A stretch of DNA of 64,000 nt from Octopus vulgaris. Its lineage: Eukaryota. Positions 12,401-27,099 of the stretch are shown one piece after another (the stretch's first letter is position 1; each line of letters opens with the position of its first letter). Location of the stretch: assembly GCA_951406725.2 (NCBI GenBank), contig OX597818.1:146010001-146074000 (forward strand), written 5' to 3'. The position numbers were made by a program, and so were the translations under genes. The notes under the pieces are model-generated. The model saw only the letters and a program-made list of their open reading frames with translations. It had not been told where the DNA came from and did no database searches.

Positions 12401-13828
12401 TTTAGACACTATTGCTCCCAGATCTACTCTGACCTGATGTAGTAGTGCCTGTCGGGGTTCCGCTATAGATTAATTAGCATATTAGGTCTTACTCACCTAC
12501 TGCTTACCTATGTAAGTGAAGACCGGATCGGGCAAATTCTTCCGAAGAAGACTTCATGGTTCAGCAGAGGAGAAGGCAGCTGCACTATGGAGTGCCAAGT
12601 GCAAGATGCAGAAAGAAAAGCATTTTTAAAAATTTGTTATTCGAACTTTGAATTGTCAGACTAGATCGATACATCGACTGCAAGAAAAGTAGATACAAAC
12701 AAATAGATGAACTGAACTGAAATGACATGAAAATAATCTTGGTTGGCAAACAACTTAGACTGATCTTTGTTATTGAAAACTCTAATGATGGTGGCGGTGA
12801 GTGGATGATGAAAAGTATATATATTTTTATTGGACTTAACGCATGCATACAATATAAAAGTTTGCCTCGATCTTACAGGCTCATGGGGCCGTGAATTATC
12901 TAGATTTTTAGGGCGTTTAAGCCTCAGGGAATACAAGAGTCCACTATTCCCTAAACGTTGTTGCATTAATTCCCCGCTGCCGCTGCTGGTACTGAATTCT
13001 GTAGAGTTGATAGAAGCAGGGTGCAGTGAGATACCTTGATGACGCACCGTCCAGCCTGAGAATCGGACCCAAGTTCTAACAATCATGAGCCAATACCCAA
13101 AACACTAAGCTACGCGTTCTCGGTGTGTGGTCATGGGAAAATACTTGTCTGCTAGAACAATTGAGATAAAGCTTCTTGAGAGTTGTGGTAGGTATTATAG
13201 TTATTTTCTCCAGTTACACTAAAACCATTACGTATTATTCTCCTTCGAAGTAAGTTATCAATTGTTTGCCACAAATAAGCGAATAATGCAATCAGTTACT
13301 TGACCTTTATGCAAAAACTGGTTTTAGGATACTCACCTGATCTCGTTTCTGCATAAAAATCATATTTCTTTTATCTTTTACTTATTTTATTCATTAGACT
13401 GCTGCCCTACTGGGACACTGCTTTGAGAAATTTTTAGTCGAATGAATCGACCTCAGTACTTATTTTTTAGGTCTGGTACTTATTCTATCGTTCTTTTTTG
13501 CCGAAACACTAAGTCACGGGGACGTAAACACACGGTGGTGGTGGTGGGTACAAACACAAAGGTACACATAGAGACACACACACATACACATATATATATA
13601 CATAAATGTGTATGTGGGAAGCAATGCGGTTGGGAAGCAAGCTTTTTATCTATAGCTATAGGCTATTTTCTTCCGTTTCTCCAGATTTTCTTTTCTTTTT
13701 GAAGCCTGATGGTCAGTAGAGTTAAAAGCTAACTGTAATGTCTCCGGGTCCTTTTGCATCATATTCAGTGGCACTCTATTGTATACCTTGGTTCTTGTGG
13801 CCTGAGACGTAAGTAATATGTATGAACT

Positions 13829-14230
13829 TGTAGTGTAGGCTCGGGTGAAATTCCTCTCTCCCATTTATTATATATACGTGCATCCGAACGTAGCAGGGAA
13901 CAGCTAGCCTTTGGCCGTAATTTGGATCCCTTTGTGTACTCTGGGTGATATTGGCGCAATTCGTCTCCTACTCTGTTGCGCCAACCTTCCCTCTGACATT
14001 TATTTGTACTATTCGATATCTTTTCATTGTAACGGTCATGTGGTGTGGTACAAGAGAGCCATTCTCGGCACCTCACATCGCACGGCCTTTACAAATTGGT
14101 GACACCGACGTGATTCGAACACGCATTCACCGGTCATTACAAATTGGCGGCCCGACATGGAACACACTTCCACGGACATTACAAATTGGTGACCCAACTT
14201 ACAACATGCATCCACAGTCTTACTTTACAA
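13829..14230 (+). mobile_element. Short LTR (copy A, 13829-14093) followed by tandem LTR-end/PBS array
   Basis: TGTAG...TTTACA termini (~265 bp), then AAT TGGTGACACCGACGTGATTCGAACACGCA (complement of tRNA-Trp 3' end); the junction is repeated 3-4 times. Confidence 0.7.
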
Positions 14231-14558
14231 CCTCTTCGAATTTCAAATGGATATATCAGCATGACCGTCACCATTAAACGGGTGCTTACTTCAAAATAAT
14301 CAGGTATTTTGTAAAACCATAACATATGAAGGACTTCAAATTATCCAAAACTGCTCAGGAGCCAATGTCCGAAATGTATTATCTTACTTGAGATGTGTTG
14401 TTTCTAGATGCATCAGTTACGGCGACTGAATGCCGGGCATAATAAGCTTATTCGAATGCGGCAAAAACTGTGATTTCTTTATCTATGGTCCATTGCTGCA
14501 TCTGATGTGATAGCATTGATCTATCTACCACCCATTAATATGTATGTTGGTCTAATTC

Positions 14559-14800
14559 TATCTATCTATCCGCTCAGTCGAAGTCGACTCTCGGTCACTC
14601 GTTGGATCAGTGTCCTCCAGTCAGTTCTATCCTGGGCCGCTTCTTTCAGATTGGCTATGTCCATTCCGGTATCCCTCTTGATGGTGTCAAGTCAGCGGGT
14701 TCTTGGTCGGCCTCTTCCTCTCTTGCCACTGACCATTCCGAGCATGATGTCCTTCTCCAGGGATTTTCTCCGCATAATATGACCGAAATATGCCAATCTA
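14559..14800 (-). mobile_element. RTE-clade LINE 3' end
   Basis: Minus frame IMRRKSLEKDIMLGMVSGKRGRGRPRTRWLDTIKRDTG...AAQDRTDWRTLIQRVTESRLRLSG is a typical RTE C-terminus, followed by a (GATA)n tail. Confidence 0.8.
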
Positions 14801-18168: not shown

Positions 18169-18790
18169 TGTAGCGTAGACTCGGGTGAAATCCCTCTCTC
18201 CCATTTATTATATATACGTGCATTCGAACGTAGCAGGGAACAGATCCCCTCTGATACTTAATCTGTGCTATTCCAATTTCTCTTTATTGCAACAGTCGTG
18301 TGGTGTGGTGTTGTGCAAAAGGGCCATTCTCATCACATCATATCCCACGGACTCTTACAAATTGGTGACCCGACTTAGAATACGTATACACGGTTACTCC
18401 ATTACAAACTGGTGACCTCGTCAAGAACTATGGCTCAGTTACTCCATTACTAAGTAGTGACCCTGTCAGGAACAAAGATCTTCAAATTCTTTGGTCAATG
18501 CCAGCTTTCATTTTACTTTAATGACCAATCGTTTTTTCTAATTTCACCTCTTAGCTACAGATATATCTTCCTTTTATCGTCTATTTTGTCTCCTACAAAA
18601 TGACTGGTGAGGGGCTCCTAGTAGCGCAGACTCAGGTGAAATACTTCTCTCTCCATTTATTATATATACGTGCATTCGAACGCAGCAGGGAGCAGCAAGT
18701 CTTTGGCCGCTATTTGGATCCCGTTGTATCCACTACTGTGATTGGCTGGTATTGGCGCAGTTTGTCTCTTACTCTGTCGCGCCATCTTGC
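18169..18790 (+). mobile_element. TRIM-like non-autonomous LTR element (LTR B - multi-PBS - PPT - LTR C)
   Basis: LTR B 18169-18359 (TGTAG...TTACA, internally deleted relative to copy A), three TTAC(A)AA(T)TGGTGACC-like units, purine-rich TGGTGAGGGG at ~18605-18614, then LTR C starting ~18620 (3'-truncated). No coding capacity. Confidence 0.65.
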
Positions 18791-21483
18791 CGTGTATAAC
18801 TAGTCGGAGGCCCTAAATAAGATCACGTGGGATAGCTGTTCACTGCCCCGTTTGAGCCTACAGTTTCTTATAAAAACTCAGCTTTTCCAGGTCTTTGGTT
18901 CATGACCTTTTATGGTCTAGCCACTAACCACAAAGACAGCCAGTTCCAGCGACAACACCACCACCATAGCAGCTACGTTGAGACTCACTAACTTCGTCCA
19001 ACAGCATTACAGCAACATCCTTCTTCATCGCCACCATCATGTCCTTCTTAACGTCGTCAACATCATCTCTCTTCGTACACAGCTCAACAAGCAATTCACC
19101 CAGGTTCCAACAGTTCACTGTTCGTGAATTATTTCATCATGGATCAACGGCGAATATACAACCTGTATGAACTCCTGTACAAGTGACTCAGGTAGCATGA
19201 TCACAGCCACGACTTCACATATGACATGTACCTGTAATCGGCTCAACATCATGGCTACGACTTCTTGATACAGTATTTCAACTCCCGTGTGCTATTGACT
19301 ACGAACTGGCATTATTTTTCTTGCGTCTATGAACTTTTCACTTCGATGGTTACAGACTCTTTCACTGTCATCATCTTCATCGCCATCCTTATATGTTTGT
19401 AAATAATATTCATTCGTTTTCCCGAATGATAGTTAGAGAGACAGTAGCAATTCTAGTGATAGTGACAAGGCTCGCTGATTAGTTGTTGATAGTGTAGAAA
19501 AAGGTTGTCTGTCAGTAGAGAGTGAAAGAGTAAGGGACGCACGGTGCTGACTAGAAAAGAAGAGAGGATAAAGGTGACATCGTCTTTCTTGCGGCCGAGG
19601 AAAGTGCCGCTGTTGATCATGACTGACGTAAAAGAGCGAGTGCTGCGCCTTGGTCATAACTGACACATAAGAGGAAGAGATAAGAAATTATTTCTGTTAT
19701 ATAGACTATGGTCAGTAATGTAGGTCAAACCTTAAAGAAAAAACTGACCTTTCTTTGATCAGCACAGGTCCTAGGGGGTCGAGTATTTCCTCATCAATCA
19801 TCTGGTGTGAAGGGGATCTCCCGCTCGTTTTGACAAGCAGCAAACGGGTGGCTTTGGTTTCAATTCTTAGGCAAGGTCAAGCTAGATCCCTACATGTTCT
19901 TAACACGCGCACACATCAATGCCTACACGCACACACACATTTTGTCCTCATGATAGCCTGTCTATTATTCTGTATACAGGACGCGCACACAGACGCACAT
20001 GTTATCCTTCAATAAATGTTCTCTTAATCATTCTCACGCGGTTGTGTATCTTTTTCCCTCAGACATTTATGTGTGCTATTCAATACCTTCTCTTTGTATC
20101 GGCCGTGTGATGTTGCACGGCCATTACACGTTAAATACCAATTTGGTGTCATGTGTTAGTCTCCTTCAGACCTGCCATGAATTAGAATATCATCTGAAGT
20201 ATTACTTATGTTAAGTTTAGTCTTAAAACGGCTGCTAATGATTTCCTACAATTCTTCAATTGCTGAGGAAATTCTTAGAACCAAACGCTTATCCCGATAT
20301 AATCTACTAGAAGTTTTAAAAATGATTAGATGGGTAATGGATAAATGATTGGTTAGGCTGGTTTAGGTTGCGTGCTGTTACCCACATTAAAATCACGTCC
20401 ATTTGGAGCTTTCAATAAAACCATTTATTGATACATAAGCATTACAATGGTTACAGTAGTTACTTACCGGAGGCTGTATCTCTAATTACCAGCAACGATT
20501 TATTTATATATGTATGTATGTTGGCTAAGCATTAGATAGCAACATCTACGTGTGGGGCAAGAGGTGAAGATCAAGAATAGTAGACGAAGTGATACTTTTT
20601 AACCCGAGGTCGAGCAACCAGCCAAAAATCATGTTTGCCTGTCTTCTCTGGGACTTCTCAACCCCTGCTTCTCTGCTTCTGCTGCGCCTAACTCGTTCCC
20701 CAACCCTTGAGAACGTGGCATGAACTGCAATGTATGGCCATATATTGGCGAGTAACTCATGGGAATTTCCATTCTAAATCATACGATGGAACAAAGCTGA
20801 AATATACTCGGTCAGAATTCAGGGCAAGTCACTGGACATGCTGTAGCCTATTACTCGTTACTGAGCTAAAGCGATTTCAAATCCAAGCCTCGCTACAAAG
20901 CAAATGCTTGCTGACGCGAAAATATCTAGTTTCATAAAGAAGCTTGTTCCATTCAAGTATTTTAGAATATTTTAGAACAGTGGGTGTTGGATATTTATTC
21001 CTTTGGATAATTAGAACGTAAAGACGGACGAAATGCCGCTAAGCGTTCTGCCCGTAGCGCTAACGAATTTGCCAGCTCGCCGCCTTAGTAACCACATATA
21101 CATATATATTAAAAGAGACAGAAATCAGTGAAGGAACCTCTCAGGCGGTCGATTGGCTTGCTTGAGATAGCAGTCAAGTTCTCTCAAATCAAATCCTACC
21201 ATCTTAAAACAGGAAATGTACATCAGGCAATGTACACACACGCACACAGACATGTTATTGTTGTTGTTGTTGTTGTTATTATTATTATTATTCTATGTTT
21301 GACTTTTGCTTTATATTTGTACAAGTTGGCTCCAAGTCTCACCCAGAGACCTCAAGAGACAGGTTGGAAGTTCGTGTTGTTGTTATGCCTAGTGTGCCAT
21401 ATATTTAGTTTTGTATTTAGTGTTGTACTAGTGAATGTCTAAAAAAAAACCCCCAAAAAACCAAATTTATGTTTGTTTTAAAA

Positions 21484-21671: not shown

Positions 21672-24692
<3,021 letters not shown>

Positions 24693-25520: not shown

Positions 25521-25857
25521 AACAGTTAAAAAGAGGAATAGCTAAAACGATAATGTCTTTAATCACAGATGTGCCGAACTTGAGATGACCAAGGACGGAA
25601 CAATGAATTAAAAGAGAGTATTTACTTTGAAAACACCCAAAATACAGCAACGGAAAAACAAAGCAAACAAGAAGTTAGGAATTAGATACGAAACTCAAAC
25701 TAAGCTTAGCTCTCCATCTCAGCCGGCTTCAGAGCCAACGTAGTGCTCTCCCCTTAACGAGCACCTTGTCCGCGATTTCAGTCGCGATTTCTTTCAATCC
25801 AAAGAGATTCGTCCTTCTGCGCATTTTCATTCTGATTTCCTTCATTCATGTAAAGCA

Positions 25858-26053
25858 ATGCTGCCTCGCAAAGTGGCTCATAATGTGGGAAATTCTGCAG
25901 TATTTCGTACCTCTGACATAGCCATAACCGAAGATGTCACATTTGAAGGGTTGTTATTGTCGGACGATGTCCTGAAAGGGCTTCAGAATTCGGGGTTCGT
26001 CAAACCCTCGCCCATCCAGCTCAAGTCCATTCCACTGGGAAGATGTGGTTTAG
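25858..26053 (+). CDS. DDX20: DEAD-box RNA helicase DDX20/Gemin3, exon 1 (Q motif)
   Basis: ATG...RTSDI...[38 protein letters not shown], then G|GTAAG donor (phase 1). Confidence 0.95.
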
Positions 26054-27099
26054 GTAAGCTACGAATTCATTTCGTTATTAACTATTTTTCACACAATACT
26101 TGTCAAATATTTCTTTTTCCTATTATAAAGCAGCACAAAAGATTTCCTAAAGGAACAATGCGTGTTACACGCTTCTCTTCCAGTCACCATAAACAAAAAG
26201 ACCAGCTTGACGAAGGCAAAATTTGAATGCAAAGTTATCAAGTCTCAAACTAAATCCTATGAAACTTAGTTTATCGCTCATCATCAATTCACCCTACTTT
26301 CATCATTTCACGTCCACACGCTGACCTCCGATGAACGGATCCTCATGGTTTTAGTCATTTTTTGTTTGGAATTGGTGCCCTCTTAGCTAAGTCAAAGGAC
26401 CACATTTATCACTCATACACCTATTTAAAAAAAAAATAAATGGATAAAAGTCTGTGGGCTTTTTAGAGGAAGAAATGATGGCATTATGGTACATTGGCAT
26501 TTCCTTTCGTTTTACTTTCATTGTTGAATACTTTTGTTCTTTAAAGCATAATCAGAACTTAACTGCTCCCTGAATTAAAGAAACATTTAAACCAGTTACT
26601 TTTACGAAAAAAGGATCGATGTTTATTAGGTACTTCCGTGGAAATATTTTCACCCATACTCCCAAGTGGTATCCGACTTTTTAATCTTATTATCGATAAA
26701 TAATGCTTCTTTTCATTTAATCGGCGAGTTAACTTACATTTTGGAACATATTGCTATTTTATACTTACATTGAACTGTAAAAAGAGTACACTATATTTAT
26801 ATAAGCTAACGAAGGAATCTTTCTCATAGTTGCTTGACAAGCTAAAAATAGCAGCCAAGTCTCCCTCAAATCATATCCTACTATCTTAAAGATAGAAAAT
26901 TTTATAATGTACATATCCCTAAAAAGTTGTGGTTGTAATGACTGGAATAGCTTTGTGCGTAAACCTAGACCAGTAAGGTTGACTTGAGGCAAAACAGCAA
27001 TGCTATGTTCTGATAGATTTTTATGCAAATTTCTATTATTTCCTGTATTTAAATATTTCAATTTCAACTTTGATCTTTAATTCTTTTTCTTTTCTTTAG

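Follow-up and report, generated by a model that had tools for sequence, protein, structure and literature searches.

A tRNA-Trp-primed solo LTR of Octopus vulgaris with three PBS units inside its integrated end

The DNA analysed here, called the window, is a stretch of 64,000 nucleotides of Octopus vulgaris (GCA_951406725.2, contig OX597818.1, positions 146,010,001 to 146,074,000, forward strand). Judged from its sequence, the feature at 13829-14229 is a solo LTR that belongs to a non-autonomous LTR family primed by tRNA-Trp and carries three PBS units inside its integrated end (Table 1). A first-pass annotation had marked repeats starting at 14081, 14128, 14171 and 14213. These repeats were borne out, with spacings of 47, 43 and 42 and a TRF call of period 42 (3.2 copies, 70% matches, score 119). 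The last of them, annotated as a degenerate fourth unit, contains no PBS and is instead the right end of the element. The insertion ends with CA at 14228-14229 followed by ACCT, which answers the AACT on the left; the array therefore lies inside the integrated LTR and not behind it, as had been supposed. Elsewhere in the window, a 3-kb (ATT)n microsatellite with AGT variants occupies 21673-24690, and an open frame at 25744-26226 on the forward strand contains a stretch that we take to resemble the part of a DEAD-box helicase exon around the Q motif.

Table 1. Features of the PBS-bearing solo LTR and of the second family copy in the window.
Feature	Position	Strand	Remark
Left target-site duplication (TSD), AACT	13825..13828	+	4-bp TSDs also in other family copies
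LTR body, TG...CA, internally deleted	13829..14093	+	bases 1-162 correspond to the 5′ end and bases 159-265 to the 3′ end of the 830-1300-bp family LTRs
PBS unit 1	14097..14125	+	28/29 complement to host tRNA-Trp positions 76-48, including CCA
LTR-end copy 1, integrase attachment-like, ends TTACA	14128..14141	+	
PBS unit 2, decayed family unit with 5-nt deletion	14145..14170	+	Trp-type letters at 14148 and 14150 in other runs
LTR-end copy 2	14171..14183	+	
PBS unit 3, decayed family unit, 5-nt deletion shared with unit 2	14187..14212	+	
Terminal LTR-end copy, real right boundary of the insertion	14213..14229	+	CA at 14228-14229
Right TSD, ACCT	14230..14233	+	3/4 match to AACT
Second copy of the family, two-LTR	18169..20128	+	exact TSD CGTT

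In each of four public runs from three studies, one contig spans the whole array at ~95% identity (13901-14585 in three runs and 13885-14343 in one). The array is therefore old and real, and the spanning contigs rule out an assembly artefact as its source. A tRNA gene or pseudogene was also rejected as the source, ARAGORN calling none in the window. No empty-site allele of the insertion appeared among the joints listed from public runs, and no RNA dataset was among the listed holders of the array.

A family search with 13820-14300 as the query returned 636 candidates, 40 of which were scored. Relatives have LTRs of 830-1300 bp with TG...CA ends and 4-bp TSDs; the window LTR lacks the middle of these. 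Full-length family LTRs measured 830-1500 bp and whole elements about 2-2.5 kb (less than 4 kb in total). Paired direct LTRs with TG...CA ends were found in the second window copy (18169-20128) and at loci L145, L286 and L287. The family has a PBS downstream of the 5′ LTR and a polypurine tract ahead of the 3′ LTR, with ~125 bp between the two in two-LTR copies. Paired LTRs, polypurine tract and 4-bp TSDs in the relatives thus confirm the initial identification of the TG...CA repeat as an LTR. The second window copy consists of a short 5′ LTR (18169-18359), three PBS, ~125 bp of internal sequence, a polypurine tract and a 1.5-kb 3′ LTR without units. The family is old, because the LTR pairs of L145, L286 and L287 are 84-92% identical. 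Three open frames tested in family copies had no Pfam match. One LTR subfamily has a fixed long unit of ~95 bp, composed of a PBS, ~80 nt of other sequence and an LTR-end copy (L091, L092, L094, L103, L128, L135, L152, L154 and L060). A separate young Trp-primed family (L271-L273) is 2.5-2.8 kb long, with LTR pairs at least 99% identical and no pol in these copies.

The family shares many properties with TRIMs. The taeniid ta-TRIM, according to the accessible part of PMC4558846, has a non-coding internal part, TG...CA LTRs, a PBS, a polypurine tract, a 4-bp TSD and many solo LTRs; the window family is alike in its non-coding interior, TG...CA LTRs, PBS, polypurine tract, 4-bp TSD and solo LTRs. 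In contrast, typical TRIM repeats are shorter than the ~1-1.3-kb LTRs found here, a typical whole TRIM is only about 0.5-1 kb, and the window family has its PBS in variable arrays that sometimes lie inside the LTR and uses Trp rather than the Leu primer of ta-TRIM. On structural grounds we class the family as TRIM-like and not as a typical TRIM, its repeats being too long. A Trp PBS and a 4-bp TSD are also common to the window family and the CsRn1 lineage of Ty3/Gypsy, the defining features of which are listed in the accessible text of PMC3630058; that text makes no mention of PBS arrays for CsRn1. Another Trp-primed element of the same genome, L280, encodes RT, RNase H and integrase in Gypsy order and combines this with a Trp PBS, a CHCC motif, a GPF motif and a 4-bp TSD, all of them listed CsRn1 features. 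The window family, in contrast, encodes nothing recognisable, and CHCC and GPF are known here only from L280, the LTR of which differs. Among ten 10-kb stretches examined, gag-pol domains occurred in L280 only, and none held a helper with the LTR of the window family. The enzymes for this family probably came from a CsRn1-type Gypsy element, and we infer the use of such a helper.

Of the 29 positions of unit 1, 28 match the host tRNA-Trp(CCA) genes with CCA added, in agreement with the complementarity of about 27-28 of 29 first estimated. Its pattern occurs at 30 places in the octopus's own genome, 23 of which contain a tRNA-Trp(CCA) gene called by ARAGORN. About 20 near-identical tRNA-Trp(CCA) genes are clustered at G000:C6:58378992-58461525 (L065-L080), tRNA-Cys genes and decayed copies are clustered within 3 kb at L206, and L090 is a tRNA-Trp copy without its first bases inside a (TA)n run. 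Units 2 and 3 have the T-loop complement at position 16 and not 21, as does the common family unit with the 5-nt deletion. All four public runs have T at 14148 and A at 14150, so that unit 2 is Trp-type. Among 42 host tRNA genes with 10 anticodon labels, an incomplete set, each of the three units had its best local match in Trp, by a small margin in the case of units 2 and 3 (8.5 versus 8.0 and 9 versus 8).

These data bear on the proposal, made in the first-pass annotation, that the array is a repeat/spacer record of different primers, that is, an ordered CRISPR-like record of priming tRNAs kept by the element. The units do diverge past the TGG, and the LTR-proximal unit is usually the best preserved. 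We nevertheless regard such a record as very improbable, since no direct tRNA copy yields a T-loop complement at 16, Trp is the best or a near-equal match among the host genes, and unit 2 is Trp-type in other runs. No array had a recognised non-Trp unit in searches that were seeded with Trp motifs and used the incomplete set of 42 tRNA genes; the expected matches to several tRNAs did not appear against that set. Every unit seen was Trp-type, and many duplicate an older unit with the fixed 5-nt deletion. The Trp-type units, the 5-nt-deleted family unit and the public-run letters together led us to reject spacers from different tRNAs, within the scope of that tRNA set.

As the annotation had anticipated, the number of PBS units differs among copies, from 0 to about 7. 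An automatic unit parser, which missed or miscalled units in L124, L128, L129, L133, L135, L143 and L145, found an internal part in 42 of 44 loci and counted one PBS in 12, two in 17, three in 4 and four in 2, with none detected in 7. In a second family, the arrays reach about seven units, some of these arrays being products of block duplication, and some units hold 80-130 nt of other sequence. The expectation that the unit nearest the LTR is the best preserved also held by gapped tRNA score, the first unit scoring best in 20 of 22 unique multi-PBS arrays, 14 of which represent one subfamily; outside that subfamily it was best in 6 of 8 arrays, and by ungapped 18-nt identity in only 14 of 23 rows. 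In L040, L037, L122 and L133, the innermost and most decayed unit is common to all and the differences lie near the LTR, a pattern that fits growth at the LTR side and also renewal of the priming site. The best tRNA match nearest the LTR could likewise reflect renewal of the priming PBS rather than the order of addition.

Target-site duplications were used to place the units relative to the LTR boundary. Among the 19 solo LTRs with units scored by hand, which are all those having both ends located, a TSD with at least a 3/4 match directly follows the last LTR-end copy in 13, and 10 of these are exact; at a chance of 0.066 per locus, P is about 1e-11. Matches of at least 3/4 were obtained in 6 of 9 family A loci (window, L005, L009, L012, L027 and L154) and exact ones in 7 of 10 loci of other families (L297, L299, L321, L309, L236, L257 and L101). 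The TSD failed or was unreadable in the other six (L032, L092 and L355 in family A; L153, L156 and L159 in other families). Seven larger stretches searched for left TSDs (L334-L340) gave no LTR 5′ end and hence stand outside the 19, and a start motif search found no LTR start in 18 of 22 family B/C loci. Units also occur at 3′ LTRs. In L128, L135 and L147, a unit follows the 3′ LTR, downstream of the polypurine tract, and is then followed by flank; the unit of L128 and L135 is also present in their 5′ leader, and the 5′ LTR is lost in all three cases. These three 3′ LTRs suggest that a downstream PBS was used for priming. Among the copies examined, none was complete with two LTRs, units at both ends and a TSD. 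Several two-LTR copies with a multi-PBS leader and a plain 3′ LTR (window 18169-20128, L145 and L289) were counted against our main explanation. Units confined to the leader of other two-LTR copies are what priming from the first PBS predicts. The duplicated LTR end agrees, family by family, with that family's own LTR end, and units of this kind were seen in five or more Trp-primed LTR families.

We then considered how far the enzyme copies the primer. The genome contains 138 exact 18-nt Trp PBS, and 70 were examined. By best extension, 61 of them end at 18-20 nt and 9 extend to 25-46 nt; 41 of the 61 belong to one young family, that of L271-L273, the LTRs of which are at least 99% identical in three copies that were compared. 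A search with a 32-nt pattern, allowing 3 mismatches at most, detected 61 places; 24 were taken as tRNA genes or gene copies, and the 37 that start at or near the CCA complement were analysed. These 37 tRNA-Trp copies at LTR-like ends are 29-51 nt long by strict ends. Of the 27 copies of at least 33 nt, eight end at 39 nt (A38, adjoining G37; P 5e-5 versus uniform ends) and three at 50-51 nt, adjoining G26. Six of the eight A38-ending copies go on with an incorrect base opposite G37, after which the following base is right again. In the A58 column, 8 of 37 copies carry a mismatch, versus 2.3% at other non-CpG columns (corrected P 3e-5). The long copies are spread over several unrelated LTR groups, with six in one subfamily, and the P values ignore kinship. 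One of the A38-ending copies, L324, ends at its TSD and is the single case with a TSD among eight checked tails that lack a regained LTR end.

In animal tRNAs, m1A58, m1G37 and m2,2G26 cause RT errors (accessible part of PMC11417395). General tRNA knowledge and zebrafish data suggest by analogy that the tRNA-Trp of this animal carries the same three modifications, and the positions of the ends and errors fit RT stops caused by them. The genome thus likely keeps a fossil trace of copying slips. HIV strong-stop DNA halts at A58, 55, 54 and 37 of the primer tRNA, according to the accessible part of PMC13191261, and the product stopped at 37 is described there and in the available text of PMC8599865 as unable to continue to completion. 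Stops at A58 and before 37 are alike in the octopus tails, but the dead end of HIV-1 corresponds here to germline-fixed products, some of which have recovered an LTR end and are bordered by an exact TSD. The annotation had attributed the long Trp complement of unit 1 to such read-through. Read-through into the tRNA stands; the 29 nt, however, need not be a single enzyme run because the distal part is also present in an inherited unit. For window unit 1, fresh copying thus covers 20 nt or more and need not extend to all 29.

Junctions between tails and LTR ends provided further information. L297, L299 and L321 each have a tail of 39-43 nt that leads into 7-9 nt from the LTR end of the element itself, with an exact TSD behind it. 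The junction differs from one locus to the next, and microhomology of 4 nt is present in L299 and of 3 nt in L321. In L257 and L236, from other families, a tail, a regained LTR end and an exact TSD likewise occur together. Clear microhomology was absent from four of the six tail-to-end junctions examined, which was counted against the main explanation. A young element (L171/L279) has an LTR and an exact 18-nt PBS, then 277 bp of LTR end belonging to another sequence variant, and after these a second PBS; this structure suggests an end-to-end join to a second template. Tails are joined to inverted LTR pieces in L123, L292 and L306. An LTR followed by a PBS or longer tRNA tail and then an inverted LTR piece was also seen, by eye, in L194, L244 and L365, and in L333 (G000:C25:9812103) two LTR ends are joined head to head by tRNA-Trp tails, one of 29 nt and the other of about 60 nt.

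A plain DNA-level minisatellite would offer another origin, with one PBS and LTR end duplicated after insertion by slippage or unequal crossing-over and unit-bearing solo LTRs formed by recombination between the short LTR-end repeat and the 3′ LTR. Some arrays contain the 5-nt-deleted unit more than once (window units 2 and 3; L124 and L129), a two-unit block is repeated three times in L160, and duplication of old units does contribute. Fresh tRNA copies of varied length with CCA and A58/G37 errors are nevertheless beyond its reach, units on 3′ LTRs also speak against it, and the unique tRNA-tail junctions with exact TSDs (L297, L299, L321, L257 and L236) contradict it as the sole cause. Moreover, among the 18 of 30 window-family loci with a located end, units and then flank occur in 4 of the 17 besides the window, a number too high for recombination over 13 bp in competition with 1 kb of LTR homology. 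We consider this account unlikely. The earlier idea of growth by adding an LTR-end and tRNA copy during replication agrees with the tail junctions that have a regained LTR end and TSD; many units are duplicates of an older one.

That the units lie inside the TSD, vary in number and all come from tRNA-Trp can be read directly from the sequence. We think it likely, with good though not full confidence, that the window feature is an old non-autonomous tRNA-Trp-primed solo LTR, the units of which arose from RT slips and entered the LTR through priming at a downstream PBS. During plus-strand strong-stop synthesis, the enzyme very probably copies 18 nt of the mature tRNA primer or reads on to 29-51 nt, with errors at A58 and stalls before G37 and G26 in the over-long products. 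The stalled plus-strand end would fail in normal annealing and jump to a template that has the last 7-15 nt of the LTR at its end, either by slipping back on its own minus strand or by end-to-end joining at second-strand transfer; the data do not separate the two routes. Such a jump would add one unit, a tRNA copy with an LTR end, beside the LTR and restore the integrase end. The rescued molecule could integrate at once or after another round primed downstream. Priming from PBS k, as suggested by the 3′ LTRs with units, would place units 1 to k-1 into both LTRs, and solo LTRs would therefore end after a unit. Older units would in addition be copied by ordinary duplication and decay afterwards.

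The array itself is most likely a by-product that is tolerated and probably has no function. An alternative is that selection keeps the extra PBS units because they serve as priming sites in reserve, rescue read-through strong-stop DNA as over-extension sequences, or act as tRNA-fragment decoys. The innermost family PBS ends like a 39-nt tRNA copy (L145, L147 and L140), a two-PBS subfamily has expanded to at least 14 copies, and a primer over-extension sequence is retained in lentiviruses (accessible part of PMC13191261). Against this, inner units decay freely, and a young abundant family has a single 18-20-nt PBS in the 41 copies so classed of 70 examined. We regard selection as an unlikely explanation.

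Several parts of this picture are already known, namely TRIM-like elements, Trp-primed CsRn1 elements and strong-stop read-through. In retroviral vectors with two engineered PBS, priming from the downstream PBS would extend the LTR by whatever lies between the two sites; those constructs are engineered and transient, whereas the octopus arrays are natural, heritable and repeated. We found no description of natural PBS arrays in the literature, which is weak evidence as subscription journals were mostly outside the scope of the search. The same scope applies to the plant LTR retrotransposons cited as a precedent in the annotation, for which no such report was found; a multi-PBS case is absent from the accessible parts of PMC10027222, PMC6317226, PMC4659654 and PMC2206039, and those of PMC3587641, PMC13524379, PMC1635257 and PMC11850887 had nothing relevant to add.

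If the main explanation holds, over-long strong-stop DNA, a dead end in HIV, can be rescued and inherited in a germline genome, and the position of the LTR boundary depends on which PBS is used for priming. The integrated tRNA copies would then, by their ends and errors, be an in vivo readout of the primer modifications that stop a retrotransposon enzyme. A broader proposal, which we advance tentatively and with somewhat less than even confidence, is that Trp-primed Gypsy RTs of this animal often pass m1A58 and that stalled strong-stop DNA, once a jump back to the LTR terminus has given it an integrase end again, is integrated directly in the form of a one-LTR product. The genome would thus hold a fossil map of germline tRNA-Trp modifications (A58, G37 and G26), LTR ends would grow polar PBS arrays, and some solo LTRs would arise without recombination. 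Solo-LTR ratios serve as a measure of recombinational loss (accessible part of PMC4659654). LTR annotation and these ratios could be affected where such products are common, and direct one-LTR integration, if true, would bias solo-LTR estimates of DNA loss. The chief value of the finding lies in a genome-wide fossil of read-through stops and a moving LTR boundary.
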